A stretch of DNA of 64,000 nucleotides, taken from the NCBI GenBank assembly GCA_021432655.1, contig MU271184.1:186001-250000 (forward strand). The letters are read 5' to 3'. The notes under the pieces are model-generated. The model saw only the letters and a list, made by a program, of their open reading frames with translations. It ran no database searches and had not been told where the DNA came from. Positions 4,474 through 55,169 of the stretch are shown piece after piece. Source of the stretch: Atractiella rhizophila. Its lineage: Eukaryota. How positions within the stretch are numbered: the stretch's first letter is position 1; every line of letters starts with the position of its first letter. A program made the position numbers and the translations under genes.

Positions 4474-7400
4474 TAGGGATGGCTATCGTACCGTATCGTC
4501 GTCTCAGCACCACTTCCGGACGGTACGTGCCCTTTATCGGCTCGTATCATACCGTAACAAATTTTGGTTGTCAGATACGTACGGGTACGGCGGAAAACGG
4601 GAGAATACGACGGATTACGGGTTATATGGCATAGTAATTTCGTCACAGCCTTAGGTATAACAATTTCATCTCTTCTGAGCCTCCCGCTCTGCAATGTCAT
4701 CCTCCAATGTCTTCAGCTCCCTCTGCAACTCTGTAAGATGAGATTTCCGTTGCAAGCGCAATGTGGTCTTGAGCATGATAAGATCACGTATACTCTCAGG
4801 ATCTAGACGGTGACAGCGAATACCTATGGTATCACGAGCTCCAGAGAAGATGCGCTCGACTCCCACAGCACAAGTTATAACAATCAAAACCTGAAAACAA
4901 GTGAGGACACTTTGGGAAGACACATACCCGGAATAGCCAAAATATCTCGAGCCAGACGAGACAAGTTGCGCACGTTGTGCTTCGACTCGTGCTTTCAAAA
5001 GATAAGTGGATCCACTCCCCAAGCCAGTGGTGCATGCTTGAAGAGGTAGTTGATTTCCTTCATCACTCCAACGTTATCCGCTCCTGTTTTTGGACCATGA
5101 CCAATAGATGCGAGATAATCGGCCGTCAGGTTCGGATTCACCCGTGACAGTGTGTTGAACTGTTGTGTGGGGAGCTTCGTAGTAGTGATCTCGAAAGAGG
5201 TCGATGAAATTTGATTTGTGTTTTTCAATCTCGTCCCGTTCCGAGTCGAATACAGAGCAGTTGAGGAATGACACACCGAGACGAGGATCACAGACTATTT
5301 CGCAAATTTTGTCAGTCATAGGTGCTGGTGGTTATAAGAAAGAACTTACTAATTGCATATACATAATAAGGAGAGAGATCTGAGCAATAATGGTAGTCAC
5401 TCAACTTGTAATAACAGTCGAGAAGAGCCTGGCGATATTCCTTATCCACAGCTGTGTCCGTAAGCTTCGAGATCTCTCCCTTCAGAAATCCGAGCAGAGA
5501 ATGGTATACTCCGAGTGTTTGAGAGAGACAAGATGTCTGGCTCATCGACATGTCATATGTCGCTTGTCGGAAAACCGCGAGCCATTTGCACACCTGAGCA
5601 GTAGTCAGAATTAGAACATCTGGCATGTAGAAATGTTAAGAGTAGGAGACGCGCCTGTTCAACTGAATTCCACTCCTTCTCACTCAGATGCAGCATGAAC
5701 AGAAGCTCATGGCGATCGGAATAAGTTTCGATGACATCCTTGTATCGAATTCCAAGGTCCAGCATGTTGTGGTTGATCCCCACCGTGTCCGAACGTCAAG
5801 GATGAGCATGCGGAGGGACTCATCGGAAAGGCTCTCGTAGGTCTTCAAATCATCCTTCAAAAGATCTAACCAGCTCTTTTGACGTTGAGGAGAGCCATGA
5901 ACGTGTTTGATGATGGCTCGAAGCTATCAGACGATTAAGAAAGTACAGCAGCATCAATAGAAGCAACAAGCATACCTTTGGTATCGCTCCATTGACTGTT
6001 CAAATCCAGTTCTACTTATTCAATTCCTCCTCACCCAGTTGTGCAGCATTGTCTTGTGTGACTGTAGGATCCTCCGTCACGCACTCTTGGTACAATGCAT
6101 CCTTAGTGAAGGTGGTCGAAGCTGAAGTTGTCGGAAGTGAAGTATCAAGTTTAGAATGCTTCGTATTTGTGACAAGAGGCATGGCGGGAGGTTTCATGAT
6201 TGGAGCTGAAGGCTTTGGCCAAACGTTCAAGAAGTCCAGCAGGGCGATAACGGCCAGATGAATGATATGAGGCATGCAAAGTATGTGCCTTTCAGTGGCA
6301 TTGAACTCGATATTTCTTTTCTTTAGCCGCTGTTCGATACCGCTTAATGTTGTCTTGTTGTTAGAAGCACCATCCATGGTAAAGCACCCAATCTATAACT
6401 CAGGTTGTTAGTGAGTGAACACAACTAGTAAAGCAGAGGCTGACCAAATTCGCCAATCCAAATTTATCGACCACCTTCATAATCACATCCGCCATATTCT
6501 CTCCTGAATGAGCTCCAATAAGCTCTTCAAATCCCAGCACAACCTCCACCAGTTCCCAGTCGCTGTTGATGAATTGACTGATAAGACAGAGGAATGCATA
6601 ATGGTTTTCGGAAGTCCAGTTGTCAAGCGAGAGGTGAACTTTGGATTTATCACACATCAGTGAAACACATTGATAACCAAAGAGTAGACTGACCTTCAGA
6701 GTTTGCGCAAGCTTCTCATTGCTTCTTTCTGCATACGCATGTATTTGCTCCTTCAGCACCTTACGACTTGGTATCTCCATCTTCTTCTTTGGACTTTTAC
6801 CAGATTCTTCCACAAATTGCAGTCCGCCTTTCGTAAGATCCGTAAGCCGTATTTCTTTGGCAGAAGGCAGTGTCCATTGGAGGTAGATGAGGAGTTCTTG
6901 AAAGGCTGGACTGTCCACAATCGAGAAGGGAAGATCTTCTTCAACAACAACTCGATTAAGCAGATCAGCAAAGATGGCAGAGTCAAACCCCTGAGAAACA
7001 TTGACGTGCTCATTCAGTAGTAGCACTAGTGAATCAGTGAATCACATACCTGTGTATGATATTTCTCCATTGCCCGACTCAGAATATCATCAATGCCCTT
7101 AGATTTTTTCTTTGAGGTCATGCCATCCATTTCTCCGATCTACAAGCCCGCTATTAAAACTTAGTACACAGTCAGGCCAGGAACAAACTGGAATGGTTCC
7201 TGCTGCCTTCTGAAGCTCTTCCTCAGTAATCTCCATACAACTCTTTTGTTTTTCCTTTAGAAGTCTAAAGAGTGGCACAACAGTCCTGCCATGATTTTCA
7301 ACAAGATGATTGCATAAAGTTTTTGTATTTCCATTGCTGGCTACACTGGATCGCAGGACTATGCTGCAATGGTTGCAGCCGAGATATTTATCGCCCACCT

Positions 7401-8866: not shown

Positions 8867-9339
8867 GCCGTTTGGATCGGCGCTCTCGATTTCTTGTTTG
8901 ATTTCTCTGAATTGCACGTGGTATGAGAGTGTAGCTTGCTGCACGTAACAAAATGATGAGTGAAGAATATATAAGCCAGAGTCCACACACCTATGCTTTT
9001 TTTGCTTGATTTGATTTGATGCTAACAGGCTCAGGGATACTATGGTAGACTGTTTTGCTCACTTTCCCTCATAGTTGGCAAACAATAATTTTTGGCACAT
9101 GACATGAGAAGTCTATGAAAGCTCTGAAGAAATTGCGGGCAGCAGTTTGCACACAACAGGATAGCTTGGCAGTGACAAAATGTGACATGACTGAGACTCG
9201 AACCCACACCAGCACCAATCATTCAAGACCCAACTACCAACCATACACTCTTTAGCTAGACAGCTTATTTGAGTAGGTAAGGAAATTTTTTGTCAAAGTG
9301 CCGAAGTCGGTCACTTGACTCAGTCATGGAAGACAACTA

Positions 9340-9600
9340 TTTTTTGTCCTTTAAATAAGCTTTATTGTATATGGTTGGAAAGGTGCTGACACGTGTAGTC
9401 TGGTGGTATGCTCAGAATTTTGATAGGGTTGTTTTGGACCAAGAAGTCAACTGAGTCAGTAAGGAAAACAATTTTTTTTCGTCTTTCAAATAGGCTTTGT
9501 TGTATGCGGTTCGAAAGGCGCCGACACGCGTATTCTGGTGGTGTACTCAGAGTTCTGATAGGGCTGTTGTTCGCAGTGATATAAGTGCTCAAATGTACAT
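9340..9600. repeat. Two diverged ~134-bp tandem units in the Helitron 5' region
   Basis: TGTATATGGTTGGAAAGGTGCTGACACGTG at ~9367 recurs as TGTATGCGGTTCGAAAGGCGCCGACACGCG at ~9501. Confidence 0.65.
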
Positions 9601-12059
9601 GCGTGAGTCATGGTCAAAACCCGTTGTGCTTTTTATATAAGGATTTGTATTTTTTCCTGGCGGCCGTGCTAAACCCTCTGCTAGTTGGTATGCAGAGGTA
9701 TTGTGAGGGGAGTTACGGAATCGGAGTACTCTGGAGGATAGTCAGTTCCCTTATTATTTGATTTCTTCGTGAGAATTTTTAGAGGGTTGAAAAGCTGAAA
9801 GAGAAAGAGGAACCTGGGTTTTGGTCGAGCATTACGCGTTAGGGCATGGGGTCCGTTTATTTCATGTAAACACCGCTTTGAGGGTCAATTTTTGGCTGGA
9901 TCTGCTCCACGAATCCTTCTGATCAAAAGGATAGAAGGAAACGGACTTGAGAAGTGAGCACATTTCTTACCTCTTCAAGACTGAACGAGCCTACTACCAC
10001 AACCTGCAACAATATTATTTGTGAGTGTAACCTACTACAGAGTGTCGTAAACTTTCCCGGAAAATTTGAGCAGATATCTTACAGTAAAAGCACGTTGTTG
10101 TTGTTGAGTCAATTAACGAGCCAACTTATTGAGTACAAGACTATGCAGCTCTGCAACCCAAAGATTATAATAGAGATAAACAGAGATAATGGGTACAGGA
10201 ATTGTGGACAAAGATCTACTCAAAAGGTGACTCTAAGAGAGAAAATAAGAAAGATGAAATATGTAGTAAAATGAGGGCTGATTGTAGAGAATGCTGAAGT
10301 GTTTTAAGGAAATAGATTACTGAAAGTAATTCCGAAAACGTGCAGTTTCTCTCAAAAATTCGAGAAAGACCTTGGGATCGTCTTTCGTTGGCAAAAAAGG
10401 CGATATCATCTATAAAACCTACTCCCGAGGTTAGTTTGAAATCTGGAATTCGAAGTAAGTTGGCATTCTTGACAAGGAAAAGGATGGGTAAAAGATGGAT
10501 CTGACGTGAAGCCGTTGCAGGTGTAGCTTGTTGATCTACCCCTCAGCCAATCTCCCGCGATTCTCAAGAACTTTGGGTCCAGTCTTGCCTTCTTCGGGTC
10601 ACCAACCAGATGAGAGTGGATAACTGAAGGAACGCTCCCTTCACCTCAAGAAAAGCCGCCGTCACTGCATGTTTTGTCCTCCATGCGTCAAAAATGTAGC
10701 TAGTGGCATATGTCAGCGCATCAGATGAGCTGCGTCCCGGGCTACCACTAAAATGATGATCCAGAAGGAGAGCTTTTGGAAAAAAGGAAAGTTTGCCGGC
10801 AGGACACCATCGTAGACCTTTGTGAACATTGAACGGACGGTAGGCTTTCGGAACAGAATAGCCTACCCGTTTGGGTTTCCGTTAGATGATGGTGTTGAAG
10901 TGTTTCCACTTCTTCGGATGGTTCCAATCTGGTAGGCAGGGGCAATGATGGTGTGGAGAGGATGCCTGATAATCTGCCAAAACTCCTTGAGAACACGGTA
11001 GGAACCTCCATCGATTTCAGGTGCAGATTTCCTGGGGTGTGCTACAACGAGCTCCTCAGTTGAGATACTACCGAAGTCGATCGAATTCGAGACTGAATCC
11101 TAGTGAGACGAGGAGGGGGATGCGCTGCCAGAAGCAATGTTCGAGAGGGTTAGGTTGGGATGTAGTGCGTTGAAAGCATGATGGAGGAGAGAAGCTTTGT
11201 CGGAATTCTCGAAGGATGTTGTGTTGTTGTGGACGAGTGCATGAATGAAATCCGATCCAGAGTTCCTTTTCGCGTTTGTTGCTGCTGTCCAGATGTTGTT
11301 CCGATTGACGTTGGAGAGGAAGTTCCATCAACTTCGTGTTCTTGAGTCTCCATCTTTTCTTGGTACCGCCTCAAAGCTCTTACCCACCTATTTACTCACC
11401 GTCGAGGTTTGTGAAGAGGTGGTGAACGAAGGAGCTATCAGAGCTGAAGAATGCGGGATCCACAGTCGTAATAGGCTCAAGAAATTTGGGCTGGAGGAGG
11501 ATTATAAGGAGTGGATGAGAGTGGAAGAGAGTGGAGGCAGGGTACTAGGAGAAGGGTTTTGTCCCAGAAGACGTCGACGACAGGATGATATGGACGGCTA
11601 CAAACCACGTGAAGGAAGACCAAGACGGGAGACCGCTGCCGCCCCTTCAACGACAGGATGGGGACTTCGAATTCGACCATCAACGAAAGCTCTCCTTGTG
11701 AAGGAAGAGGAGCAAGCAAGAAGGGGAGAGAATTTTTTTAAATTTTTAATACCATTTCTAGAGCCATTTTTTTATGCTCCTCTATGACCAACAACACTCC
11801 TCCATCTAGAACAGAAAACATGCAACTCAAGTATCGCCCTCTTTTAGACCTCTCTAACTTTGGCTTAAACGTGGGAGTGCAAGGATGCCCTACACGAGAA
11901 ACGAGACAAGACACCTAATAAACTGACCCATTGGAAACTGAGAGGATTCTGCAAACCTGCCTCTCAGACTGTACCCACGTCTCCTTCTCCCTCTTCCTCG
12001 GTTATTCCCCTCCATTCCTTCCTGACCCCTCCGTCTTGTTCTTCTCTAGCCTCCTCGGA

Positions 12060-13665: not shown

Positions 13666-13930
13666 TCCTTCCTTAATTAAAAAGCAGGACGGGTTTGACC
13701 ATGACTCATGCATGTGCTTTTGAGCGCTTATATCACCGCCCACAACAAACCTTTCAGAATTCTGTGTATATCACCAGAATACGCGTTTCGGCGCCGTTCG
13801 AACCATATACAGCAAAGCTTATCTAAAAGACACAAAATAATTTTCCTCATGACTGAGTCAAGTGACTGACTTTAGCACTTTTGGCAAGACTTTTCTTACT
13901 TACTCGAAATAACCTGCAAGGTAAAAAGTT
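13666..13930 (+). mobile_element. Second Helitron 5' end, same family as 9643, opposite orientation
   Basis: A|TCCTTCCTTAATTAAAAAGCAGGACGGGTTTGACCATGACTCA aligns with the reverse complement of ~9260-9643 but has only one copy of the 134-bp unit. Confidence 0.65.
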
Positions 13931-15335
13931 TGTGCTGTAGTGGGTGTTACAGTCATTTGCAAAATTAGTATCGCTCTTCGCTCGTCGTCAACTTCATGTC
14001 AACCACTCTCCTGGTGGCAAATTTATGTCATTGTTCCTGAAGTCGTAGATCAAGTGCATGCACCAAATGATTTCTTGGACATTCTGTTTCGAAAGAGAGC
14101 TTAATAGGTAGGAATGAGAACACACATCCTGGGGTACATATTAGAACATAGGAATTTGCTTGCTCACATTTTGTCACTTTTGAAGCTGTAAGTGCCTACA
14201 TACAATTTAATAGATAATGTAGTTTCCAAAGAAGTGTTGTGAGTACTCAATCACTAATTATCTCTCAGCATCTCCCTAACAGCATAATCAGCCACTTTTT
14301 ATTGCAAACCAGCGGAAACTAGATGTGGTCCCCCCGAGGAATGAGGAGGAGCCCGCTACCCAACTTGTCAAATAAGATAGTGACAACAAGGTCATGTTGG
14401 CACAGAAATGGATGCTCTATCCAGGGTGGATCTGTCAACAACGCAGTAAGAAATCACATCTGGAGGAGTAATGTCATATTTGGCGGCGAGAGTCTACTGA
14501 AGTGAGGACTTTCCAAGTTGTTCCATCATGCAGGCAGGGATGGGCACTTGCAGGCGATGGAATGCAGGAGTAGCTGTGTTCTCGTGGCATGAAGGACTCC
14601 TCAACGTACTCTATGAGCTGAAGGGATTGTCGAGGGATCTAGAGAATTGAAGGAAGAGGACAACGCTTGGCATCTCGATAAGTTGCGGAAGTTCCAACAT
14701 TGTGTGCTAAGTCGCATGTAGCCGACAAAACCAGTGAGAGATATGAGGTGTGATTCACTGCGGTAGGATTCAGAAACGCGGACACATAAGGGTGAGGAAC
14801 TGCTCGAAAAGTAAGCTAACAGTGGAGGTGTCATATGTTGATGTACTTGCCAAATTCCTCCTCTCCCTCAATCCTGAACCAGTTCTCTGCTCCACCAACC
14901 ATCATCTGAGCTCTATCCTACATGGGCTATTGCCATACCTGGTAGGGCTAGCCTCATGGTCATCAGCACAGCTGATAAGGTCTTAGCAAAGTGGCTGGAG
15001 TCAGGCAATTTCAAGTGGTGGAAATAACGTCTGGAGCTGAAAAGTCTGGCTGCTGAGCGAATGTCAGTGTTTGCCATTTATGGTAAAGCAACCCCTTTGC
15101 TGGTATACCCTACTAGTACAGGTAAAGTATACCTAGAAAATTACCAGTACACCTTTAGCATCATGTGACCTCTATGATTATTGATTCCAATGAGATAAAT
15201 AATCATAATGCTCTGCAACTGAGTTGTACATAGGATTTAAGGAGGAGTAGAATGTGCAAAATACTTCTATTAATGAAAATCAAACTAGAACAAAACATGG
15301 AAAAGACATCCATCCTCATCGTTGTTACCTGTGAC

Positions 15336-16138
15336 TAGGCTTGTCATACGGGTTACCCGTGATCCGTGGGAAAACCTCCCGGTTATCTACCTCAGGTGCC
15401 ATCCCCTCAACCGCCCCGTCACCCGCACAGTTTTCACCGTCAGCCCACGGGGTGGGTAGGTGGTTTATGGGTGAGTGGCAGTTACAGCGGGCCGACAGGT
15501 CACAAGTAGGTGAAGGGTTACGATGGGAAGAGTTTGTACCGATATTGTGAAATGTGTGCAACAAGAACAAGTCAGCGTGCACTTGCTGGCTCGACTCAAT
15601 GGTCTTGATGGCTGCGCCTGCTGCTTCTTGCTTCTTCTGCTCCTTCCTAGCAACAGCCACATCCTTCTTCTTCCTTTCACTCTTTCAATGCCCTCAACAA
15701 CACATTTACCGGGACACCTACTCGCCCCATTCCCAAAGCTTCATCATCATGGAGGCACGAAAGCTCAAATCAACCGGCAACAGCGTTGTGGGTTACTATA
15801 ATCTATGGATAAAGGTGTTTGAGCTTGTTTAGACCAGAAACAAAAAACATTCTTCTCAGATATGGGTTAACTTAGAAATGAGCATTGTCTAAGAACTATA
15901 CTTATCTTGATACAATATTCAACGTATACATCTCTTTGAGGTTATCCCAGGACTTGTCAGCCAGCAAGCGCTAAGGCATGCTAGTGTGATCCAAAATTCC
16001 CAATTCGAAGCAATGACAAAATCAAGGTGAAGGTGAGAGAACCCGCAGGTTCCCACGGAATTTTTTGGGGAAGGATCCTAACCCGTCACCATTCCCTTAT
16101 CCCTCACGGGTTTTCCCCTGCACCCACAGACAACTCTT
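15336..16138. mobile_element. Non-autonomous hAT derivative, left palindrome arm
   Basis: Terminus TAGGCTTGTCATACGGG with ACCCGT/ACGGG subterminal repeats. A second subterminal cluster and a decayed opposite end (CCCACAGACAACTCT) lie at ~16040-16138. Confidence 0.6.
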
Positions 16139-19100
16139 TCAACACCTAATTATCTCCTTTCATTCACTAGCGAACCCCAACCCTCAATGACGATCAACAG
16201 GACAATCAAATCCCATGGATTCGACACTTGGCCGCACCGCCGATTCGTAAGTGCGAAAAGGGAACTCAATCGAAGCTTCTGAGCAATTGGTCTCACTGCT
16301 GAGAGGAAGAGAACACCTGATTGCAGTACAAGACAGCATATTGGCTGAAATGTTTGGGCCTGTTTATCAGCAACTTTGGCGCTGCCGTACGCAAACCTAG
16401 CGCTCGTCGCAGGTCCACCGCCAGGACAGTCCTGAGGTTTAGGCACTGAATCCAATGCCGCTAAAGGGGAGAAGAGCCACTTTAACGTTCTTTAACGTTG
16501 ATCAATGGAAGCAGACGAGCGCACCCTGTCCGGAAAGCTGTCCTTGAACACGGAGGAGCTATCATGCTCACTATTCCGCTGATAGTCTGCATTGTCCAAC
16601 TTCGCACTGGGCGACAGTAGGGGTAGAGGCGAGGGACGAACTCAGAGGCTTCTTGTTGTTTTTATCATCAAAATGGAGGGAATGAGTTGAGAAGTTGGCA
16701 TTCCACTCCGGTAACCTCGACTTGATCAGAGTTTCCAAGGCTGGTCTTCTTGTGCGTGTGAGAGTTTCTCTCAACTAAATCGCTGAGGGGAACATTGTTA
16801 TTCTCAACCTCGATAGCCTGCTCTCTTATTCCAGGATCATGCTGGCTCTGCCAATTAAGGTCAATGAGACTGGGTGATGTTAGAGATAAAGAAGTCACAG
16901 CGGCCAAATCCAGTGCGAGCAAAGGACAAATTCAGAATGTCTCAACGATCTTAACATTAACCTCACGTTAAGCACTTCTCTGGGCCAACCGCTCTTTTGG
17001 CCATTGGGATAATTCACGCTATTACCGATTGCATTAATACCCCTGTTCCTTTAAATTTCGTCGCAGCGCGGTGAGTGATGCCGAGAACCTTGAAGAACAC
17101 TTCGATCACCACCAAAGATGGAGCTGTTGCTCTTCGTCGCTCCAGCCATTCCGTCAACAGGAAGCAAGTTGGTCGCCGAAGCGTAGGCTCAAATACTCCT
17201 AAGGGAAGGAGGGAATTAATCGAATTCGCGAGGTTGCAAGAATGTGACTCGCCTCTGGAATGTTAACAAATGAGCCAAGATTAGGAAGAGAGAGTAGAAA
17301 CATGCTTCTGCTGCATGACTCCATTAGTCAGTCGACCGGGGGAGGCAAGGGTTCTCTTACCTGCGCTTTGCGTTGAGGCGGGGGGCTCCAAATTATCGGG
17401 GGTCCTGTATAAATCTTCTCAAAACTGAAGGTCAAAGCCAGCGAGCGGCCATCGGGTGGCTAAACAGACAGTGCGAGTTGCATTGTTCAAGTCAATATAT
17501 ACAAAAAGATTCCACTGAAAAGGCCTGAGACAACACCCGCAAACGAGCATAATCATTGATGGCGGGTTCGAGAATAACGGGACGAGCATGGCTCCGTGGG
17601 TGCGCACGGAGAATGGTGTAGTGGATGATTCATGTGGTGGTGAGCTTTTCAACTCGGTAATGTGTAGGAGGGATATTGTTTGCTGTTGACAACAGCAAAC
17701 AATATCCCTCCTACACATTACCGAGTTGAAAAGCTCACCACCACATGAATCATCCACTACACCATTCTCCGTGCGCACCCACGGAGCCATGCTCGTCCCG
17801 TTATTCTCGAACCCGCCATCAATGATTATGCTCGTTTGCGGGTGTTGTCTCAGGCCTTTTCAGTGGAATCTTTTTGTATATATTGACTTGAACAATGCAA
17901 CTCGCACTGTCTGTTTAGCCACCCGATGGCCGCTCGCTGGCTTTGACCTTCAGTTTTGAGAAGATTTATACAGGACCCCCGATAATTTGGAGCCCCCCGC
18001 CTCAACGCAAAGCGCAGGTAAGAGAACCCTTGCCTCCCCCGGTCGACTGACTAATGGAGTCATGCAGCAGAAGCATGTTTCTACTCTCTCTTCCTAATCT
18101 TGGCTCATTTGTTAACATTCCAGAGGCGAGTCACATTCTTGCAACCTCGCGAATTCGATTAATTCCCTCCTTCCCTTAGGAGTATTTGAGCCTACGCTTC
18201 GGCGACCAACTTGCTTCCTGTTGACGGAATGGCTGGAGCGACGAAGAGCAACAGCTCCATCTTTGGTGGTGATCGAAGTGTTCTTCAAGGTTCTCGGCAT
18301 CACTCACCGCGCTGCGACGAAATTTAAAGGAACAGGGGTATTAATGCAATCGGTAATAGCGTGAATTATCCCAATGGCCAAAAGAGCGGTTGGCCCAGAG
18401 AAGTGCTTAACGTGAGGTTAATGTTAAGATCGTTGAGACATTCTGAATTTGTCCTTTGCTCGCACTGGATTTGGCCGCTGTGACTTCTTTATCTCTAACA
18501 TCACCCAGTCTCATTGACCTTAATTGGCAGAGCCAGCATGATCCTGGAATAAGAGAGCAGGCTATCGAGGTTGAGAATAACAATGTTCCCCTCAGCGATT
18601 TAGTTGAGAGAAACTCTCACACGCACAAGAAGACCAGCCTTGGAAACTCTGATCAAGTCGAGGTTACCGGAGTGGAATGCCAACTTCTCAACTCATTCCC
18701 TCCATTTTGATGATAAAAACAACAAGAAGCCTCTGAGTTCGTCCCTCGCCTCTACCCCTACTGTCGCCCAGTGCGAAGTTGGACAATGCAGACTATCAGC
18801 GGAATAGTGAGCATGATAGCTCCTCCGTGTTCAAGGACAGCTTTCCGGACAGGGTGCGCTCGTCTGCTTCCATTGATCAACGTTAAAGAACGTTAAAGTG
18901 GCTCTTCTCCCCTTTAGCGGCATTGGATTCAGTGCCTAAACCTCAGGACTGTCCTGGCGGTGGACCTGCGACGAGCGCTAGGTTTGCGTACGGCAGCGCC
19001 AAAGTTGCTGATAAACAGGCCCAAACATTTCAGCCAATATGCTGTCTTGTACTGCAATCAGGTGTTCTCTTCCTCTCAGCAGTGAGACCAATTGCTCAGA

Positions 19101-19239
19101 AGCTTCGATTGAGTTCCCTTTTCGCACTTACGAATCGGCGGTGCGGCCAAGTGTCGAATCCATGGGATTTGATTGTCCTGTTGATCGTCATTGAGGGTTG
19201 GGGTTCGCTAGTGAATGAAAGGAGATAATTAGGTGTTGA

Positions 19240-20043
19240 AAGAGTTGTCTGTGGGTGCAGGGGAAAACCCGTGAGGGATAAGGGAATGGTGACGGGTTAG
19301 GATCCTTCCCCAAAAAATTCCGTGGGAACCTGCGGGTTCTCTCACCTTCACCTTGATTTTGTCATTGCTTCGAATTGGGAATTTTGGATCACACTAGCAT
19401 GCCTTAGCGCTTGCTGGCTGACAAGTCCTGGGATAACCTCAAAGAGATGTATACGTTGAATATTGTATCAAGATAAGTATAGTTCTTAGACAATGCTCAT
19501 TTCTAAGTTAACCCATATCTGAGAAGAATGTTTTTTGTTTCTGGTCTAAACAAGCTCAAACACCTTTATCCATAGATTATAGTAACCCACAACGCTGTTG
19601 CCGGTTGATTTGAGCTTTCGTGCCTCCATGATGATGAAGCTTTGGGAATGGGGCGAGTAGGTGTCCCGGTAAATGTGTTGTTGAGGGCATTGAAAGAGTG
19701 AAAGGAAGAAGAAGGATGTGGCTGTTGCTAGGAAGGAGCAGAAGAAGCAAGAAGCAGCAGGCGCAGCCATCAAGACCATTGAGTCGAGCCAGCAAGTGCA
19801 CGCTGACTTGTTCTTGTTGCACACATTTCACAATATCGGTACAAACTCTTCCCATCGTAACCCTTCACCTACTTGTGACCTGTCGGCCCGCTGTAACTGC
19901 CACCCACCCATAAACCACCTACCCACCCCGCGGGCTGACGGTGAAAACTGTGCGGGTGACGGGGCGGTTGAGGGGATGGCACCTGAGGTAGATAACCGGG
20001 AGGTTTTTCCCACGGATCACGGGTAACCCGTATGACAAGCCTA
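19240..20043. mobile_element. Non-autonomous hAT derivative, mirror copy in right palindrome arm
   Basis: Reverse complement of 15336-16138; ends CCCGTATGACAAGCCTA at 20043. Confidence 0.6.
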
Positions 20044-21099
20044 GATATGAATACTAGAGGTGGCGGTATGAGCTATGTGACTCAAACCGGCTCGATATTC
20101 TTGGAGAAGGATGGAGGTGAGTCTACAATGCTTCAGAGAGGTCGGTCATCTAATTGAGAGTAGTTGCATCCGTCTCGAATCGAGTCGCCGTCCCTGCCCC
20201 GGCACAAAGGACAAGTTCCCAGCTGACCCGAAACAACACTTATGCCATCTCATACCCCCCAAGCACGAGCTACGATGCCCGGAACGCTTACTTGCATGCG
20301 GACACTATCCTAATGCACCTCTCTTGAACTGTGATCAAGTCCTGAAATGAAGGGGACTCGGATTGGCAAGCGGGATGATGAGTCACTGCAGAGACAGACT
20401 AAGTGTGCAGCTCGTGAACACTCTGCTGCAATTTGACCTACACTCTCTCGGAGCATTGGCAGCACACTCACAAAGGTGAGGAGAAGACTGACCGGGTTGC
20501 ATCCATTCCGAATGCATGCCATAACATCTTGCGCCTAGGACAATCTCATGATTGATATCAGGGGATGACTATGGAGGTGCTGGGAGAAAAAGCATAGAAA
20601 GGGAACAGAGAATGAGCTCAGGAGATTGAGGGGTGAGGAGGTGCTTCGGGGTGGCTCACGTCAAGGAAGAGGTCGTGGGATCACGATGGGTATGGGATTG
20701 AGAGGAGCAGTGAGTGCGAGAGAGGGGGTGGAAAAGCCAAAAGAGGATGACGGTGCAGGTGGAAGAGGTTTATAGGCAGCATCGGGTCGGTCGTTTAATC
20801 ACCTTCATTCATGCCAGATTGACGTGACAACACATCACCTCTGACCTCCGTCGATCGCGAAGCACCCTCTCACCCCTCGGGTCTTTCCGATCTGTCAGCC
20901 TCTCTCTTCCGAATTCAAAAACATACAAACGCAATGTCTTGTTTGAAAGCACTGACCAGATCTCAAGTGCGAAACCGGTTGCTGCAAATATACTGAAGAA
21001 CCAAGGGATCCATCTTCGACGAGCCCATATTGCTCACACCCTTGCGGAAAGCAGGAACTCGGAACGCAGTGCGGTTACAATGCTTCAGGGGATTCTCTT

Positions 21100-21404
21100 G
21101 AGACACGAATGGGGATGCACAAAGGACAGCTATACCACCAACCGGTAGGATAGGGTAAATCTTGTCCCAAGTCTTCGGGTCACCTTTGAGCCAGGCAAGA
21201 CACATGATAAGTGTGAACTCCAAGAGACCGCAGTAACTTGATAATTCTAGTTGGAGAGGAGGTACTGGTTGAAGAAGAAGGCAGCTCGGACTGGGGCCAA
21301 CGCTGTGCTTTCCACATTGTTTTGAATTCTCGAGGGAAAGTAACTATGAAATCCCAACCGTAGAATGCATAACAAGCTGTCATCTCCCACTGTATTGTGT
21401 TCAT
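21100..21404 (-). pseudogene. Fungal membrane-protein fragment (DUF6533-like N-terminus)
   Basis: CYAFYGWDFIVTFPREFKTMWKAQRW fits the D..lTf..E...iW pattern and is followed by hydrophobic segments in another frame. Appears disrupted. Confidence 0.4.
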
Positions 21405-22271
21405 ATGCAGAAAGGAGAAAGCGCAAACCGGTTAGGTAAGTACGGTTTGTGAGAGTATGTCCTCGATGGCTGCACGTTGGAGAGCAAGGTCAAGTGGTTC
21501 TTGCGCTCTAAGAGCAGAAGATGACATGTCCCCTTCTTTGTCGAGGCAGCTGTGAGGAGGAAAAACAAAGTTTACATCGAAGAAGCCTTTATACTTCTGG
21601 TTCATGGCGCAAACTGATGGTGACACCTTCAGAAGCCCGAATCTTGATCATTGTCAATACTGGACTACCAAGTATGCCATGATCGAAGGACCACCATTGA
21701 CCAACAATGCAGAAATACACTGCCAGAGTTCTAAGTATTGGAGGGGGAATCAGCTTTGTTCCTGCTGCACTACTTCCGCGTTAACAACCGCTGACCAAAC
21801 AGAGGCTCATAGTCACACAAATTCTCCTGGTTCGCCGGACAAGTTGCTGCCTAGTGAGTAAATAATTATATGTCGTTGTAGGCGAGCTAGGTCGTTGTCT
21901 TTTCCTATCTCACTCGCTCACCAACAAACTACCTTTGAGAACCGATCGTGTTCCTTGATTCTACATGTGCTGGCAAGTAGAGTCGCATACGCATAAGTAA
22001 CGAGTTTCACAACCATTCAGATGTTGAAGGTCTCTCACTTTGTGGGAGGGTGGGACGGTGCAGGGGAAGGGGAAGGTGCGCTGCGACCGTCTCCAGAGTA
22101 CTGCCCCATTCAAATTCGTTATTCGTTCGTAGAATGGAGCGTCGGCAAGCGTCGCCTCAGCTCTTGCTGCAAATGAGAGTAGGTATTTGTAGGTATCAGT
22201 AGTTTTCGGTATGTAACAAGTGTGTCGGTGCCCTCGTCCATCAGGCACCCCCCAAGCCAGGGGCTTCGCCC

Positions 22272-26431: not shown

Positions 26432-27025
26432 AATCAGATGAGCCGCACGGGTTCTATCACCAGCAACCGGATGAAAAACATAAACCTCTGCGGATCAGGA
26501 AAATGCTGATGTGCTTCCTCCTTTTGTCCGTAAAAGCTGTTTATTTGTCGAAGGAAGGAAATCGCTCTTTGGGGAGAGTGAATAAACACGAACAAACACA
26601 GAAATGTAAGGTACTGCTGGCTGGTTGGCGGTTTCACGTGTTGAATGAACTGGGATCATCTCAAGGTTCCCAGGTCTCAAGTGGAGGTGGACGGATCGTC
26701 CGGAGCCTATAGATTTAGGTTCTGGACAGAGTATTGTCTCCCGTGTCACAGTGTATGTGACTGGTTTCATCGGGGTGGGCATTGATCAGATGGTGATCAG
26801 TACGTGTCTCAAAGTTCATCTACTACTAGTAAATGTGTAATATTACTATCCACGGCAATCAGCATCAATAATGTGGAGTGATAACCAACTTCACGACAGG
26901 TGTTCTAAGCGTGAAAATAAACCCGCCTCAGCAAGATCGTTAACGTGATAAAATGTATGTTCAACGGGGTCTGGCTGAACGTAGCAGCTTTGCACAATGT
27001 TGTCCGTGAGACCAAAGCTGAACCG

Positions 27026-27189
27026 TGTTGAACCTGAGGTTCATCAGAAAGACAGGAAGAGGAAAAAGATGAACCTCAGGTAATGCGAACGAGACTAAAC
27101 TACAGTAGCGGACGGAACAGTCAGACGCGGAATGCGTAAGATGAACGGGAAACCAAAAACGAAAAGAGAAAAACAACCAAGCTTCAACA
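27026..27189 (-). repeat. 3' LTR of Copia-1 (164 bp)
   Basis: Identical to the 5' LTR except for 4 extra bases (GAAA). Preceded on the minus strand by the polypurine tract GGAGTGGGAG (27190-27199). Confidence 0.97.
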
Positions 27190-27385
27190 CTCCCACTCCG
27201 TACGCTACAACAAATTGGGAGAAGGTGCAATGGAGAATAGGAATGTGGGATGGGTTGTGATGTAAGGGTGTGTGTGTTCAAATGGATGTGAATATGAAGA
27301 AAAAAGAAATGCTCTGTTACACAACTATTGTGAAGACTGAACGAAGAAGTGAGAGCGCACACGGATGAAAAGAACAGAGTGTCAA

Positions 27386-30300
27386 TTAAGAGAAAATGAT
27401 GCGAGTTCCAATATCGCGTACTCCCATAGCATGGATGCATTGGTGAAAGGAGTCCTTGGCAAGTGGTTTTGTGAGAGCGTCTGCAATCTGATGTCGCGTT
27501 GGCACATACCGTAGAATGATATTGCCTTTCTGGACGTTGTCTCTAACCATGTGGTAGCGAAGCAGAAATGGCTTGCTTTGTGCATGGTGGACTCCGTTGG
27601 TTGAGATCTTGATCGCCGCTTGATTGTCTTCGAAGACTGTCGTGCGGGGTATGTCTTCTCCTGGCGAGACGTTGTGAATGCTTTCAAGTGCTCCTAATTC
27701 TTCAAAAAAACCTCTTGTCCACAGCAGATCTGCAGTTGCTTCCGCAGCTGCACCATATTCTGCCTCTCCGGAAGACAGTGCCACGACGGTTTGAGGCTTC
27801 GATTTGAAAGTGATGGGTGCTCTGCTGAGCATGATGAGCCGTCCTTCTTGAGATTTGAGGGATGGAAGAAGGGAGGCAAAGGAGGCGTCAGAGTACGCAT
27901 GAAGGGGTCTGCGATCGTTCCCATTAAACAGCAGTCCTTTGTTTGAGGTTGCGCTGAGGTAGCGGAAAATTTGCTTGACTGCTTTGTAGTGTTCTGGGCC
28001 TGGGTTGGCTGCGAAACGCTGTACGTTGGAGAGAGCGAAGGTGATGTCCGGACGTGTGCAGATTGATAGCCAGTTCAAACATCCTGTGGCTTCTAGAAAT
28101 GACCATGGAGGTTTGTTGGCGAGGTCATCCTCAGACCAGACGCCATCAAATGGTTTAAGCTTTACCTTGGGATTCGCAGGGACACTCGCATAACTGTCCG
28201 TGAATCCAAATTTCTCCAAGATTGACAACGTATACAATCTTTGAGTCAGACTGATCGTGCGTCTTTCCCAGTCGCGTTTGACCTCCATTCCCAGGAACTT
28301 TCCAACTTCTCCGAGTGTTCGCATTGCGAATGATGTCCCTAGCTCTCTTTGAAGCGTTTTGACAACAACACGGTCTTTGCCTAGCAGCAGAGTGTCGTCA
28401 ACATAGACGACAAGGATGTATAGCCTGCCATGTACTGTTTTTGTGAAGACGCAGGAGTCAGACCATAAAGGGGTCCAACCCTTCGTTTGCAAGTCTGCCT
28501 TGAGAGTATCAAACCACAAACGGGCTGCTTCCAGTAGTCCATAGAGACCCTTCTTTAGCAGATAAACTTTTCCTTCAGTACCAGGCTTCTCTAGGCCAGG
28601 GGGTTGACGGATGTAGATTCGAGTTTTTGACATGTCGATGGGGGAGTTGAGGAAGGCAGTTTCATAGTCTGCTTGGTAGATGGATAGATCCTCACGAGCA
28701 GCGAGAGCAATGACGCCGCGGATGGTTTCGCTGTTGCTTACGAGAGCGAAGGTTGGGTCTCCAGTAGGGGTTTGAAGATCTCCTCTGACACAGATGCGTG
28801 CTTTGAGGCTTTCTAATTTTCCATTAATGTCGTATTTGTGTCGGAACGCCCACATGAGAGGTGTAGCTGTCTCTCCTTCGGGGAGATCTATGGGTTCGCC
28901 CTCAATCGTCTTGTTTTTGAACTGTTTCTCCCACTCGTTCTGACATGGCTGGAGCCATTCTGATCCTTCGCTACTTTTCAGTGCTTCTTTGAAGCTCCGT
29001 GGTTCTCGGAGAATCCAACCGTGGTCCTGAAGTGCGCGCGTGGAGAACATGTAGTCGATGGAGTCGCTGGGACGAGGAGGAGAGGATCCTTGGGAGCGTC
29101 GCTGACGTATAGCTTCTCGTATGTCCTTTTCGGAAAGTTCATCCACTTGGATAGCCATTGGAGCGCTGATGTTAGGTTCGTGTATTTCAGGCGAAATAAA
29201 GGCACTTTCCCGTTGCACGGGTCTTACGTCCACCACTACGTGCTCGGCCCCTATGCAACTGCCCGTTTTTAATCTCTCAGGAGCATCATGGCTCCCTTCA
29301 GTGCGCATACTGGTGGAGGCGAACCGTAGGATGTCTTTGTATTTTGGATCGACGACGTAGTCGTTGTTGAAGATGCGCTTATTGGGGATTCGTCTCCGTC
29401 CAGAACGTGGAGGGGGCGGAGGACCTTCGATTGAAGGGGAGGGGGCGAGAGGAGGAGGGATACCGTCACTTGCAGGCGTGAGTGTTAGCTCCATCGCTGT
29501 GTCAGGGTAATGGTGCTGATGCAGAGGAATATCACTTTCCTGAAAAGCGGGGCTTACGTCCACCCTCTCGTGTGAAGCGCCCTCGCAACTGCCCGTACCC
29601 AAATTATCTGTCTCTGCAACATTTCTTTCGCTTTCACCGAATGATGCTGGAATGGAGGGAGTTGGAGCTATTGTTTCGATGGAGTTAGGAGCAGGGGGTG
29701 CGACACGTATTCGTGAGTCGGGAAGGCCAGCGTCCAGAGGTGCGTTTTGAGGAAACTCGTCGATGTTATCTTCTGACCAGAAGGTATAGTCGTCTAGTCG
29801 GTCTGACCCAGTCCTTCCTTCAAAATAATTTTCGGCAAAGATAACATGGCGAGCACGAATGAGATGTCGCTTGACAGGATCCCAACAACGATGCGATTTG
29901 AACATTACGTCGGGTCCCAGATAAATACAGCGTACTGCTTTGTCCTCCCACTTTTTCCTGCGTTCCTCAGGAATCAATGCCCATGCCATGCATCCAAATG
30001 TTCGCAGATAGCCTACTGAGGGTTGGAGTCCTTCGAGAGTCGTCAGAGGTACTCTACCTTTTAGTGAAGTGTGAGGTGTGCGATTGTACACATGTCCGGC
30101 AAAGTAGAGAGCCTCAGCCCAGAACATTAGAGGGAGCTTTGCGTGATAAAGCATAGATTTGGCAAGGTTACGAAGGGTGCGGTGGATGCGTTCAGCGATT
30201 CCGTTCTCTTGATGACAGTAAGGTGTTGTTGCTTTCCATTCGACATTATTCGACTCGAACCATGACCTTAACAAGTGATTTACGAACTCTCCTCCACCAT

Positions 30301-31090
30301 CTACTTTCCATCTCTTCACGTTTCTTTGTGTTTTGGCCTGAAGGAAAGATCTGAAGCGTTCGAAGGAGAGCAGGACTGTGGCTTTTGACTTGTCAGGGAT
30401 GAATTGCTGATGAACAACTCTTGAACCGACATCAACGTGCACGATGGAGTACCAGGCACCACCCAAGGAAGAAACTTGCACAGGGCCAGTGAGATCAGAT
30501 ACTACAGACTCGCCTGGCAGTGTGGGCGGCAGCTCAGCGCTTTGTTTTGATGGAAACGATCCCCGATGCATTTTTCCCATAACACACGGCTCACAGACGA
30601 CCTCAAGTTCCTTCTCTTTCGTTTCTTTCACCTCCAAACCACCCACTAGCGACTTCGAAATAAGATCTTTGATCTTCTCAATCCCGACATGCGCCAGCCT
30701 GTTGTGCCAAGTCTTTAGATCGACGGCCTTCGAAACGGTATCGATGTGAGCACTCGCCTTTCTTGCTTCTCCCTTCAGTAGGAATAAACCCCCTTTCTCC
30801 TCTGCTACCCCTACTAGCCGCCCTTTCTGATTAAAGATAGAGCAGTTTCCATTCTCGAAGACTAACTTGAGGCGCTCGTGTGCCGGTAAGGAGAGGCTGA
30901 TAAGTTTCGAAACGCTGATTAGGGGACTCGTGAGGGAGGGTAGGTGGAGGACATTGTGCAGGGGTATGTCAGAGAGGGGCGTCCCATTTTCGCTGGAGGT
31001 GACGTAGACTGCGGACCCTTTCGTTGCAATTGAGATTTGTCTTCCATCCGCAACTTCAATGGATCCGTTATGGTCTTGACGGTTGGAGAG
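27386..31090 (-). CDS. pol: Copia-1 pol (protease C-part, GAG-pre-integrase, integrase, RT, RNase H)
   Basis: Within ORF 27386..31303: WHNRLAH..CEPC, SDLTGP, VDGGGEF, ENGIAER, LKARICVRG, YVDD, YSDAS, EAEY, ADALTK. Confidence 0.95.
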   Translation of the reverse strand, partial: LSNRQDHNGSIEVADGRQISIATKGSAVYVTSSENGTPLSDIPLHNVLHLPSLTSPLISVSKLISLSLPAHERLKLVFENGNCSIFNQKGRLVGVAEEKGGLFLLKGEARKASAHIDTVSKAVDLKTWHNRLAHVGIEKIKDLISKSLVGGLEVKETKEKELEVVCEPCVMGKMHRGSFPSKQSAELPPTLPGESVVSDLTGPVQVSSLGGAWYSIVHVDVGSRVVHQQFIPDKSKATVLLSFERFRSFLQAKTQRNVKRWKVDGGGEFVNHLLRSWFESNNVEWKATTPYCHQENGIAERIHRTLRNLAKSMLYHAKLPLMFWAEALYFAGHVYNRTPHTSLKGRVPLTTLEGLQPSVGYLRTFGCMAWALIPEERRKKWEDKAVRCIYLGPDVMFKSHRCWDPVKRHLIRARHVIFAENYFEGRTGSDRLDDYTFWSEDNIDEFPQNAPLDAGLPDSRIRVAPPAPNSIETIAPTPSIPASFGESERNVAETDNLGTGSCEGASHERVDVSPAFQESDIPLHQHHYPDTAMELTLTPASDGIPPPLAPSPSIEGPPPPPRSGRRRIPNKRIFNNDYVVDPKYKDILRFASTSMRTEGSHDAPERLKTGSCIGAEHVVVDVRPVQRESAFISPEIHEPNISAPMAIQVDELSEKDIREAIRQRRSQGSSPPRPSDSIDYMFSTRALQDHGWILREPRSFKEALKSSEGSEWLQPCQNEWEKQFKNKTIEGEPIDLPEGETATPLMWAFRHKYDINGKLESLKARICVRGDLQTPTGDPTFALVSNSETIRGVIALAAREDLSIYQADYETAFLNSPIDMSKTRIYIRQPPGLEKPGTEGKVYLLKKGLYGLLEAARLWFDTLKADLQTKGWTPLWSDSCVFTKTVHGRLYILVVYVDDTLLLGKDRVVVKTLQRELGTSFAMRTLGEVGKFLGMEVKRDWERRTISLTQRLYTLSILEKFGFTDSYASVPANPKVKLKPFDGVWSEDDLANKPPWSFLEATGCLNWLSICTRPDITFALSNVQRFAANPGPEHYKAVKQIFRYLSATSNKGLLFNGNDRRPLHAYSDASFASLLPSLKSQEGRLIMLSRAPITFKSKPQTVVALSSGEAEYGAAAEATADLLWTRGFFEELGALESIHNVSPGEDIPRTTVFEDNQAAIKISTNGVHHAQSKPFLLRYHMVRDNVQKGNIILRYVPTRHQIADALTKPLAKDSFHQCIHAMGVRDIGTRIIFS

Positions 31091-32438
31091 GGAAGACATG
31101 AGAGGTACATCCAGAGTCAATGATGGCAATAGCGGTCTTGTCAAAAGAGAGATTTGCCTTACTGGCTTCGACTTCTTCAACGAGCCGGACTTGGTCTTGA
31201 ATTGCAAAATGAGAGGACGATTGCACATTGGAAGCAAAGTCGGAGCTGAAGTCAGATGTATTGAGGACCAGGTTGACTTGGTCAAGAGTGGAAGAGGTAT
31301 CAATGGATGGTGATGTCAGTTCTTTGGCGCTATCCTTTCTCCTTGGATTGACAGCTCCGTCTTTGAATCGATATCCAGGAGGAGCAAGAGTTCGATTTCC
31401 TTCAAGTTCCCAACAGCGATCAGAGGTGTGAGAGCGAAGACTGCAGTGAGGACACGGGGGGAAACAGTTGATGGTGGAAGAAGGGCGATTCGTCCCACTC
31501 CTCCTCGACTTGTCTCGATCTCCCGTACTCCCACTTTTTCCACTCCCTCTTGCTGGCGTTACCGACCTAGTAATCAGCGCTTGTTCCTGCGCCTTCTGCA
31601 CCTCACTGAGGCCCTCCTCCAACATTATCGTGTTGATAGTGTTGGAGATCCACTCGGGAGTGAAATCGATAAGGGTGGCCTGGGCAGATTTCATTGCCTG
31701 TAAAGCTGAGAAGTACGGCTTCATTTTGTCGCGGAGGGAGTCTGACAGGGTGGCTTGGAGGTGAGCCGAGAAGATGAGTGACTTCCAGGTTGCGGTCGTG
31801 AACTTATCGTCCCCAACGTATTTGACGAAATCAGTAAGATTCTTCTCCAGGACCGCCATGTGTTCAGTCCAGTGTTGGGGAGTACTTCCATTGAAATGAG
31901 TTCGTGCAAATGTACTCCAAGCAGTGACAGCATAAAGGTGGTTGGCAGCGTCATACTCCTTTTTCAGCCAGTCCCACGCTTCTTTCGCTTTCTCCTTAAG
32001 GTCGTTCGCCTTGATCCTTGCTTTCATTCCATCAGAGAGGGATTCGTAGAGGAGCGTGGAGGCTTGGAGGTTTTTGTTCTTCCACGCAATGGAATGTTGG
32101 TCGAAGATATACAAAGCGGCACCGTAACGAGATTCGAGAGGTTCCTTCTCCTCTCCAGATATGACTAGCCAAAGTTGTTGGCTACGCAACGTTTCATATG
32201 CGTCTTCCCTCCATGCTCGATAGTTGGGACCTTCTAGCACGGTGGGGATTCGGCGAGTTAAGAAAGAGTTTGATGGAGGAGTAGGTAGGGCATCCATCGT
32301 GATGAACGGGATGTCTGCTGGTTCTGGAGGAGGGCTCCGATTGAGTGGAGGTGCTGTGGATGGTTCAGGAGTTGCGATGCCGTGATCTGATGGATCCTGG
32401 GGTAGAGATGGTTCGTCTGATCTTGGTGATCGAGACAT
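31068..32438 (-). CDS. gag: Copia-1 gag plus protease active site
   Basis: 456-aa ORF with LEGPNYRAW, zinc knuckle CPHCSLRSHTSDRC and protease motif IIDSGCTSH just before the stop. Confidence 0.92.
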   Translation of the reverse strand: MSRSPRSDEPSLPQDPSDHGIATPEPSTAPPLNRSPPPEPADIPFITMDALPTPPSNSFLTRRIPTVLEGPNYRAWREDAYETLRSQQLWLVISGEEKEPLESRYGAALYIFDQHSIAWKNKNLQASTLLYESLSDGMKARIKANDLKEKAKEAWDWLKKEYDAANHLYAVTAWSTFARTHFNGSTPQHWTEHMAVLEKNLTDFVKYVGDDKFTTATWKSLIFSAHLQATLSDSLRDKMKPYFSALQAMKSAQATLIDFTPEWISNTINTIMLEEGLSEVQKAQEQALITRSVTPARGSGKSGSTGDRDKSRRSGTNRPSSTINCFPPCPHCSLRSHTSDRCWELEGNRTLAPPGYRFKDGAVNPRRKDSAKELTSPSIDTSSTLDQVNLVLNTSDFSSDFASNVQSSSHFAIQDQVRLVEEVEASKANLSFDKTAIAIIDSGCTSHVFPLQPSRP

Positions 32439-32580
32439 GAAACCTCGCTCAAAGGCGTCCGAGTTGAGTTGGTTTGTTGATTAGCACGTGTCGCGTTTGT
32501 TTGAGAGTGTTTACGACTATTGATGGAAAGGGAGGAAGGCTTGGGGAAAAAGGCGGACGCTTATTCGGTAGGGATCATTT

Positions 32581-32592
32581 GGGCTCATAACC
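32581..32592 (-). promoter_or_regulatory. Primer binding site GGTTATGAGCCC (internal tRNAi-Met fragment type)
   Basis: Directly follows the 5' LTR. Same type as the Ty5 and Drosophila copia PBS, which pair with the anticodon-arm region of initiator tRNA. Confidence 0.85.
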
Positions 32593-32752
32593 TGTTGAAC
32601 CTGAGGTTCATCAGAAAGACAGGAAGAGGAAAAAGATGAACCTCAGGTAATGCGAACGAGACTAAACTACAGTAGCGGACGGAACAGTCAGACGCGGAAT
32701 GCGTAAGATGAACGGCCAAAAACGAAAAGAGAAAAACAACCAAGCTTCAACA
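32593..32752 (-). repeat. 5' LTR of Copia-1 (160 bp)
   Basis: TG...CA ends, adjacent PBS, and TSD AACCG. Confidence 0.97.
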
Positions 32753-35433: not shown

Positions 35434-38400
35434 CTAAGAGAGTGCCATGTATTCAGCTTCTGTAGACGAGATTGCTACCGATTTCTGAGCAGTCGAAAAA
35501 CAAGAGACCATCCCGCCCGCCAGATTGAAATGGCAACCAGATATCGACCGTCTACTGTCGATGTCAGCCGCATGATCCGCATCGCGCCAGCCCACCAGTT
35601 CATTCGATGCACCCTTCCCATCCCATCCCAAAACCCTTCCGGTTGTCCCTTTCAAATATCGGTAAATCCTCGTTACTGCCTTCCAATGTCCCATCCCCGG
35701 GTTTACCATATACCTACTCACTCGATTTACGGCATATAGAATGTCTGGCCGCGTGTTGACTGCCAGATACATCAACGCACCAACTGCCTCCGAGAACGGT
35801 ATCCCTCCCATTTCCGCCTTCTCCTGTTCAGTCTTCGGTGACATATCGTTTGTCAACTTGTCCTTCGGATCGCAAGGTGTGCTGACAACAGAATGGTCCT
35901 GAAAACCGTATTTCGCAATACATCTCTCGATGTAGTCGATTGATCCATGGTTATACGCCGATTCTCGCGATCCTGGGTAATCCGCATCCCAAGGTACTCT
36001 CCCGCTTCGCCGTGTGTAACTCTCTTGAAGACCGCCACCATTTTCTTCATCAAGCTGTCTCGCAAATCTGTCGACGTCGATGCAATGAGTCCATCATCCA
36101 CGTGTAAGAGTACTTTTACCAGTCCCCTATGATCCTGTCTAACGTACATTCCGTGATCAGCCTGTGATTTCACGAATCCCTCCTCCTTCATCATCGTGCT
36201 GTATTCTTCGTTCCAACTCTTCCCCGCCTGTCGCAACCCATAGAGACTCTTCTTTACTCGGTAAACCCAGTCAGGATGTTCGGGATCAACAAGGCCCGGT
36301 GGCTGCTGGACTTATATCTCTTCCTCTAATTCTCCATGTAAGAATGCATTTCCAACGTCGAACTGTCCCAGGGTCCATCCGTTTATGGCGGCAAGCGCAA
36401 GGACAACTCTGATGGTGGACATGCGTACCGTCGGAGCGTAGGTTTCCGTAAAATCTCGACCCTCCACCTGCTTATTTCCAAGGGCAACTAGTCGCGCCTT
36501 ATATTTCAGAAATTCGCCCCCCAACTTCCTCTTCTTGCTTAACACCCACTTCAGTGGAATAGGAACGACTCTGTCCGGTTTCGGCTGTAGCGGACCCAAA
36601 ACCCCCATCCCTGTGATTTGTCCCCACTCCCCTCCGCATGCTCCAGTCCACCCCTCCCTTTCTTCGCCCATCATTGCCTTCGAAAACGTAGGTGTATCGT
36701 CATTCCCGTCCCAATTTCCGTCCACCGCGAATGCCCCACCTCCAACGTTCCCGTCCGTTTGTGCCTCATCAAAAATCGCTGATGCCTGGACCAGATTTTC
36801 AACGACCGTCCTTGCCTCCCGCACTTTCTTCGACTCCTGTTCTCTGATCCCAGGCCTCAGGACAACATATGCACTTGGTAAGTCCTGTATACCCGAGTTC
36901 ATCTTCTTATAATCTCGTCGCAGGGTCTTCCTAGATGATCGGCGAACATCTGGTCTAGGTGTGGTTGCACGTCCCATATCCCCCGCCGTATCGTCGTGTT
37001 CCTCACGTATTCTGTCCCCCACAGGTGCTACTTCAGTCTGGTCTTCCGGAAGGCCCCCCATACCGTGCGCGAAATCATGGACACCCCAATTCCTCCCCCA
37101 GAATTCTTCTATCCCAGCCTCTAAAGCCGCTCTAGCCTCCTCGCGTCTCGTTCCCTTCCTTTCTCGATAGAAGACCCCTTCGAACCATTCGACATCAGCC
37201 GATTCAAATACTACCCTCTTCTCCGCATCCCACAATCTCCATCCTGCCACGTCTTCACAATATCCCAGCATGTATCCTTCCCTTCCCCTAGGTTGAAGCT
37301 TCGATTCTTGACGCTCCTTTGGGATGGTAGCAACTCCCAATGTCCCAAAAGCAACAAGGTGATCCATGGACGGTAATTTTCCGTATAACGCCTCGTATGG
37401 GCTCCTGGCATCCGTGAGTGCCTTATGTGGTACCCTCAAGTATAGATAAACTGATGTTGCCATAGCGTCCCCCCAGAAACTGACAGGAAAACCGCTCTGT
37501 AGTAATAACGCTCTGGTCATGTTCAGCAATGTCAACCACGGACGCTCCATCATGCCCATATGGTTGTGTTTATAGGCAATCAATGTCTCATGCTGAATTC
37601 CTTCTGTCCTCGTAAAGGTCGCCAGAGTCATTCCCATGTACTCTGCTGCCCTAACGGTTCGTATCTTCTTGATTTTAACTCCATGTTCCCGTTCAAATCG
37701 GCTGATCCATTCCATTAGCACGATGGGTGCGGATACCTTCGAACGAAGCGGAATCCACCATATGGAACGTGTGCTCTCCTCCAGAATGCTCATGCCATAA
37801 CGTTCCCCGTTCCTCATCCCAACTCGAGCAGGTCCCCATATGTCACTCAAAATTCTTTCACCCAGAAGGCTCTCTGACATCTGTTGCTTCGGCCTGTTTG
37901 TCTTCGTAGTCGACTTAGACATAGCACACGTCAAGCACTTTGGAATCCCTTCATTTGATTTCGATTTCGTTAACGTCACATTTCCAAGTTTCCCCTTTTG
38001 CAACATATCCTTTATCTTTCCAAAACTCAGATGTCCCAGTCGTTCATGCAGGGTATGCAATTCAACTGATTTCGCAATCGAGGACGTAGACGAAAAGCAG
38101 ACATGAGCGTCGAACGTTGTGTGAGATGGGATGTAACTTGCCTTTACGGCGACGTTCTTTTCCCCAATAACCGCAAATCCTATCGATCTCCCATCGTCGA
38201 TCCCATAGTATATCGTTTCGCGGTCGTTCGTGAATCGCATCCCATTGCGCATAAGCTGCATGGCAGAGATAAGATTGATCCCCAGTTGTGGTAGATAGAG
38301 GACATCTTCGAAGACGACAATGAATCTGGTTCCATCCGTGTTTTCCATGACTGCATGGATTTCTCCAACAATCTTCGTGGTACCCGAACTATCAAAGACT

Positions 38401-44635: not shown

Positions 44636-44829
44636 TGCTGCACTTAGTGAGTAGTCAGATGCAAATGGATATCTTTTGTGATTTTCAGTCTGGGACAAAT
44701 AATGTACTAGCCTCCACTTTTGAGATTTTTATAAAGATCACGTCAACTATTCTAAAGCAAAGGCAAATTTTGAGCTTTTATTTGATCAATTACAGCTGCA
44801 GTTGCGAGAGGACTGAATGCACTGTTGCG

Positions 44830-55130: not shown

Positions 55131-55169
55131 GAATTAAAAATCAAACAAACCATTGGTGGTACTAGAAAG

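Follow-up and report, generated by a model that had tools for sequence, protein, structure and literature searches.

The assembly of Atractiella rhizophila contains a 4.7-kb palindrome with a single-base centre, and the question is whether the DNA of the organism carries this structure as well, or whether it was created on the way from the reads to the contig. The stretch of DNA that we analysed, hereafter the window, comprises 64,000 nucleotides (C5:186001-250000) of a 51.5-Mb assembly in 1998 contigs. In the assembled sequence, the palindrome is present just as a preliminary description had reported it, with its centre at A17689. The arms at 15475-17688 and 17690-19903 are exact reverse complements of 2214 bp each, separated by a 1-nt spacer, and the mirror reaches outwards to 15335 and 20044, with an arm identity of 99.85% (BLAST). 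The arms differ by two substitutions, lying 2215 and 2242 bases away from A17689 (15474/19904 and 15447/19931), and by an indel of one nucleotide in an A-run near 15371/20005. All of these fall within the outermost 140 bp; an even spread would produce this with P about 2e-4. In a survey of 120 partly overlapping records (610,696 bases, about 1% of the genome), which is too small to judge whether the fault is systematic, no other perfect inverted pair had arms of 60 bp or longer, and no second long palindrome was found. With arms that match perfectly over 2.2 kb and a spacer of 1 nt, such a palindrome is expected to be very unstable. Our answer is that the palindrome is very probably a mis-assembly; it is confirmed for the assembled sequence and, with the same high confidence, refuted for the DNA of the organism. 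The locus is composed of the following features.

15336-16134, forward strand: copy A of a non-autonomous hAT-like element, with an intact left terminal repeat; the right end (about 65 bp) is missing in the assembly.
16131-17541, forward strand: fragments of dispersed repeats forming a mosaic; the pieces listed have a depth of about 1x in the reads, as for single-copy DNA.
17542-17696, forward strand: 5' gene fragment, with 77% identity over 155 bp to L021 (C309) and L022 (C226).
17682-17696, no strand: 7+1+7-bp inverted repeat at the fold, apparently native, judging by the paralogue match.
17697-19243, reverse strand: mirrored copy of a single-copy segment, very probably an artefact (unmirrored contigs past 17690, depth 1x, paralogue spacing of 636 bp).
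19244-20043, reverse strand: copy B of the hAT-like element, in the opposite orientation to A; contigs of both runs connect its end with the right flank.
20055-20292, forward strand: 3' part of the gene beginning at 17542, with 77-78% identity to L021 and L022 and 69% amino-acid identity.

The locus is present in two public runs (X1 and X2) of one sample from one study, both available as Logan contigs and neither with long reads. According to the accessible part of the Logan report, every 31-mer occurs in these contigs a single time, and their simplification follows SPAdes-like rules (10.1101/2024.07.30.605881). Used as read evidence, they drop rare variants. They were compared with 17669-22260, i.e., one arm and the right flank; the left junction at 15335 and the junction at 16134 are outside this direct view. 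All figures from the read data refer to 16 of the 199 pieces, 12 of the 59 loose ends and 40 of the 96 letter differences, which were the ones listed.

At the centre, the contigs of both runs continue for 158-160 unmirrored letters past 17690. Record 1 of X1 (734 nt) has 574 letters on 17690-18263 and 160 letters spare, and record 9 of X2 (1120 nt) has 962 letters on 17690-18651 and 158 letters spare. The 31-mers shared with other loci predict breaks of the graph at 18651, 18670 and 18953, exactly where records end or start. Because these predicted breaks account for the other contig ends, the spare letters belong at the centre end, and since each 31-mer is held only once, they cannot be the mirror. 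With a true hairpin, the contig would reach 15 bases beyond the centre, and first-bin depths of 77.2 (X1) and 119.9 (X2) would be expected; the observed depths of 68.9 and 107.0 correspond to zero cover of 17669-17689. Among the 16 of 199 pieces listed, no contig spans the centre in either run, although the SPAdes-like simplification means that a rare fold-back tip could have been removed.

The depth of the arm paints the same picture. Weighted by length, the inner arm has a depth of 88.2 (three records) versus 87.5 in the flank (four records) in X1, and of 122.9 (two records) versus 118.4 (four records) in X2, giving ratios of 1.01 and 1.04 instead of the 2x of a two-copy arm. These ratios omit one flank record per run (records 5 and 13, 20435-20805), treated as a collapsed repeat; the two records have 9 and 13 other letters and two 94% copies elsewhere, and their inclusion would lower the ratio. 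The element part of the arm, in contrast, is present at about two copies: its interior at 19504-19827 reached a depth of 281.9 in X2, i.e., 2.3-2.4x the flank (2.38x), so two copies are detectable in these data, as judged from X2 only. The inner arm is thus single-copy in the reads and runs on unmirrored past the centre. The preliminary description had named beforehand a crossing of 17689 into non-mirrored sequence, and a depth of one copy over the arms, as outcomes that would speak against a palindrome in real DNA, and both were observed. It had also offered three origins, a very recent event, active homogenisation or an artefact. The single-copy depth and the unmirrored continuation support the last, but not the first two. 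Two features escaped that description: the dispersed hAT-like element that forms the outer 800 bp of each arm, and the position of the centre within a gene, at a native short inverted repeat.

These results would lose their weight if the runs and the assembly came from different DNA, for example from another subculture or library, with a real palindrome fixed in the source of the assembly. The fractions of sampled words recovered in the runs are 0.84 and 0.79, which leaves some room for this explanation. However, other letters are absent from 14 of the 16 listed pieces, and the sizes of the runs (46 and 52 Mb) match that of the 51.5-Mb assembly, so that the runs look like the same strain. The expected instability of such a palindrome speaks against its fixation as well, and we consider this explanation very improbable.

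The outer 800 bp of each arm are a dispersed element, and both limits of the palindrome fall exactly on the left end of this element. Five other places in the assembly start at the same base (TAG), on C3, C16, C5, C160 and C1874. The family copies run past 16134 to a right terminal repeat, whereas the copy in the arm stops there, about 65 bp short. The family has short terminal inverted repeats at both ends. A 14-base end motif has 13 exact matches, paired on C3, C16 and C160, and copy A keeps only the left one. The C3 copy, 873 bp long and with both ends, is flanked by a perfect 8-bp target duplication. Another perfect 8-bp duplication is shared, across contigs, by the ends on C1874 and C1577, while the duplications match at 5 of 8 bases for the C16 copy and at 2 of 8 for the C160 copy. 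Perfect duplications therefore occur in two of the four family copies with both ends located. According to the available part of a source on hAT elements, an 8-bp target duplication is a feature of this group (PMC10368747).

A frame in the 4-kb copy on C16 gave 0.95 to ZBED1 RNase-like (hAT transposase) clusters, with the family on 51% of the members and the recognition just below the stated mark. None of the six frames scanned with Pfam had a hAT domain, and PF05699 had no match on this copy. The 4-kb members of the family are located at C16:8951-12938 (L034:1452-5439) and C160:1410-5395. The frames of the C16 copy are split by introns and carry motifs resembling those of hAT transposases, making it a candidate autonomous partner. 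Two small contigs, C1874 (L019) and C1577 (L064), terminate in the left and the right end, respectively, of one element copy; given their shared target duplication, they probably adjoin each other in the genome, with a collapsed element between them. Weak matches to the hAT dimerisation domain, among 120 in the genome, were found in the window at 2875-2973 and 4923-5018 (reverse strand).

The position of both limits at an element end raises the possibility that transposition itself made the palindrome, either as a replicated excision hairpin at the 1-nt centre or as a composite transposon with a left end on either side. When a hAT element excises, the flanking DNA is left closed as a hairpin, offset by 1 nt. 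Nevertheless, an excision hairpin as the origin of the 1-nt centre was rejected, because after the centre the paralogues described below show coding sequence and not an element end. A composite transposon was also rejected, since there is no target duplication around the unit and the outer flanks match at only 4 of 8 bases. Furthermore, the reads continue unmirrored past the centre, and of all the origins considered a hAT product seems to us the least probable, with hardly any weight. Sister-chromatid transposition, as with maize Ac, was rejected too, since it should place an element end at just one of the borders and give a depth of two copies.

Between the element and the fold, the arm consists of repeat fragments followed by the start of a gene. 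The stretch at 16131-17541 has matches of 74-92% identity on C58, C1376, C716, C77, C248 and others. The gene has two intact-looking paralogues, on C226 and C309, whose protein has a signal-peptide-like start and a hydrophobic segment; at the locus, the signal-peptide-like start is replaced by the repeat. Pfam gave no useful match in the three frames of the paralogue and no family for any of the four ORFs of the arm. In both paralogues, the homologues of 17542-17696 and 20055-20292 follow each other on the same strand and in the same order, 636 bp apart. The segments of C226 and C309 (L022 and L021), and also those of C716 and C77, are about 99% identical or score equally, and are either haplotype copies or recent segmental duplications.

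The paralogues also bear on the position of the fold. Beyond the centre, the next seven bases agree at six positions with the sequence that follows in the paralogues themselves (chance about 0.0013), which places the fold on an inverted repeat of 7+1+7 bp that is apparently native. A short repeat of this kind at the fold fits a true fold-back, yet it is equally expected for an artefact. The missing middle of the gene was not recovered in the assembly: a DNA search gave five matches, only on C226, C309 and three pieces of C5, a protein search added only relatives of 33-37% identity and no close third copy, and a search with the 15-base centre motif did not find it either. In metagenome contigs, a 25-base centre pattern had no exact match, and none of the 159 pattern matches was a confirmed relative of the paralogue protein.

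This anatomy is what a real fold-back inversion would leave behind. A break in the gene would be resected, the end would fold at the 7+1+7 repeat, the arm would be copied, and a switch into the inverted hAT copy would delete the middle. If this had happened in a part of the culture, in one nucleus type or a subclone, the assembler could have chosen that form. The centre on a native repeat, the end in a repeat and the differences confined to the outer edge all fit the yeast pathway, in which, in the part of the report available, natural inverted repeats prime the inversion and a dispersed repeat mediates its secondary resolution, and which would give the same sequence (PMC10622511). However, a palindromic fraction f raises the depth to 1+f, i.e., to 1.5 for one of two equal nuclei and to 2 if fixed, as opposed to the 1.01 and 1.04 that we obtained. 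In addition, the contigs are unbroken at the centre and 17669-17689 has no cover. We therefore hold a fold-back in part of the culture to be unlikely. Taken together, the two forms in which a true inversion could survive, a minor subpopulation or another DNA preparation, amount to a small chance.

If this minority fold-back were true, the break would have been rescued by the neighbouring inverted hAT copy on the same chromosome, and some nuclei would carry a real palindrome of 4.7 kb, with a loop of 1 nt and an identical left transposon end on each side. These two ends could behave as a new composite element and give rise to hairpin RNA directed against its own family.

Mis-assembly is our best explanation. 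False duplications and fold-back artefacts occur in sequencing and assembly, and the locus combines a single-copy depth with the absence of the true continuation from the assembly. Following the gene order of the paralogues, the left flank of the true locus would be followed by copy A and by single-copy DNA of about 1.55 kb, up to the native 15-bp repeat; next would come about 630 bp of gene sequence, then the inverted copy B and the right flank. An assembler or gap filler entering from the right flank through copy B could leave B into the DNA downstream of A, as A and B are nearly identical. It would then walk this DNA backwards, so that about 1.55 kb are mirrored, and merge with the forward path at the 7+1+7 repeat, by a short overlap or through fold-back chimeric reads, and the true middle would be dropped. 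Chimeric reads at natural inverted repeats are described as a library artefact in the accessible part of one study (PMC10908179), and such reads could have supplied the turn at the fold. We found no description of this precise gap-filling fault in the literature, which was searched by title and abstract start.

In terms of the assembled sequence, the order in the paralogues points to the right arm (17697-19243) as the false one. It would stand in for about 630 bp of the gene middle, and probably also for the right end of copy B. Since an interior flip between A and B is invisible to short reads, either arm could be false. In each run, one contig (records 4 and 12) leads from the end of the element into the right flank; it starts at 20015, as the graph predicts, and contains 29 element letters only. 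In X1, a loose end at 19244 continues into a variant of the right end (12 letters, one contig, one run), a weak hint of an intact copy B; this variant has no exact match among the six near matches in the assembly.

One observation speaks against mis-assembly. The two copies differ at three sites in 140 bp, yet the 324-bp interior with the 2.3-2.4x depth shows no difference. This is unexpected, and mis-assembly therefore needs gene conversion or the removal of a bubble during assembly. At each of the three, the right copy has the same state as the C3 copy, which means that the left copy holds the derived states. The interior of copy B in the assembly may be drawn from A, and the assembly may have used another library than X1 and X2.

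As biology, what remains is minor: an ordinary hAT-like element present twice, close together and in opposite orientations, and a gene copy in decay. The locus is relevant rather as a caution. A mis-assembly can mimic the anatomy of a true fold-back, with a native repeat at the fold, a repeat at the far end and differences only at the edge. Sequence anatomy alone cannot separate the two, but depth and read-through can.

Several other features were observed in the window, which looks fungal, judging among other things by size and introns. A frame at 59069-59815 (reverse strand) holds a piece of COX1 followed by a GIY-YIG domain, and probably derives from mitochondrial DNA that was copied into the nucleus together with a group I intron endonuclease. 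Two elements of the copia type, both on the reverse strand and with long open pol frames, lie at 27021-32752 and 36312-40229; the terminal repeats of the former are 97% identical, and a further near-identical repeat is found at 62916-63075. An older direct duplication (40953-44700 and 53257-56198, 90-91% identity) is accompanied by a 160-bp tandem array at 44870-45389. In addition, a high-copy repeat family forms a decayed inverted pair (78-81%) at 9225-9643 and 13670-13948.

Compared with known systems, the outer ends of the arms resemble non-autonomous hAT elements of the Hermes and Ac/Ds type, as covered by the available part of the source, in their short terminal inverted repeats and distinct left and right ends, in the 8-bp target duplication on family copies, and in the 4-kb member with a putative hAT-transposase-like frame (PMC10368747). 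Unlike these elements, the likeness is limited to the outer 800 bp per arm, copy A lacks the right end, and the palindrome as a whole has no target duplication. With the fold-back inversion of Saccharomyces cerevisiae, as presented in the accessible portion of Al-Zain et al. 2023, the locus shares a centre at a natural short inverted repeat and an end in a dispersed repeat. In yeast, however, the duplicated segment gains copy number, whereas here the depth is 1x and the reads show the unrearranged continuation (PMC10622511). The false duplications and fold-back artefacts described in the part of the literature available to us (PMC10908179) share the near-perfect mirror, the fold at a short native inverted repeat, the single-copy depth and the loss of the true continuation. 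In contrast to the usual fold-back artefacts of that source, the mirror at our locus closes on a second, real inverted transposon copy, and lies within a contig with correct flanks on both sides.
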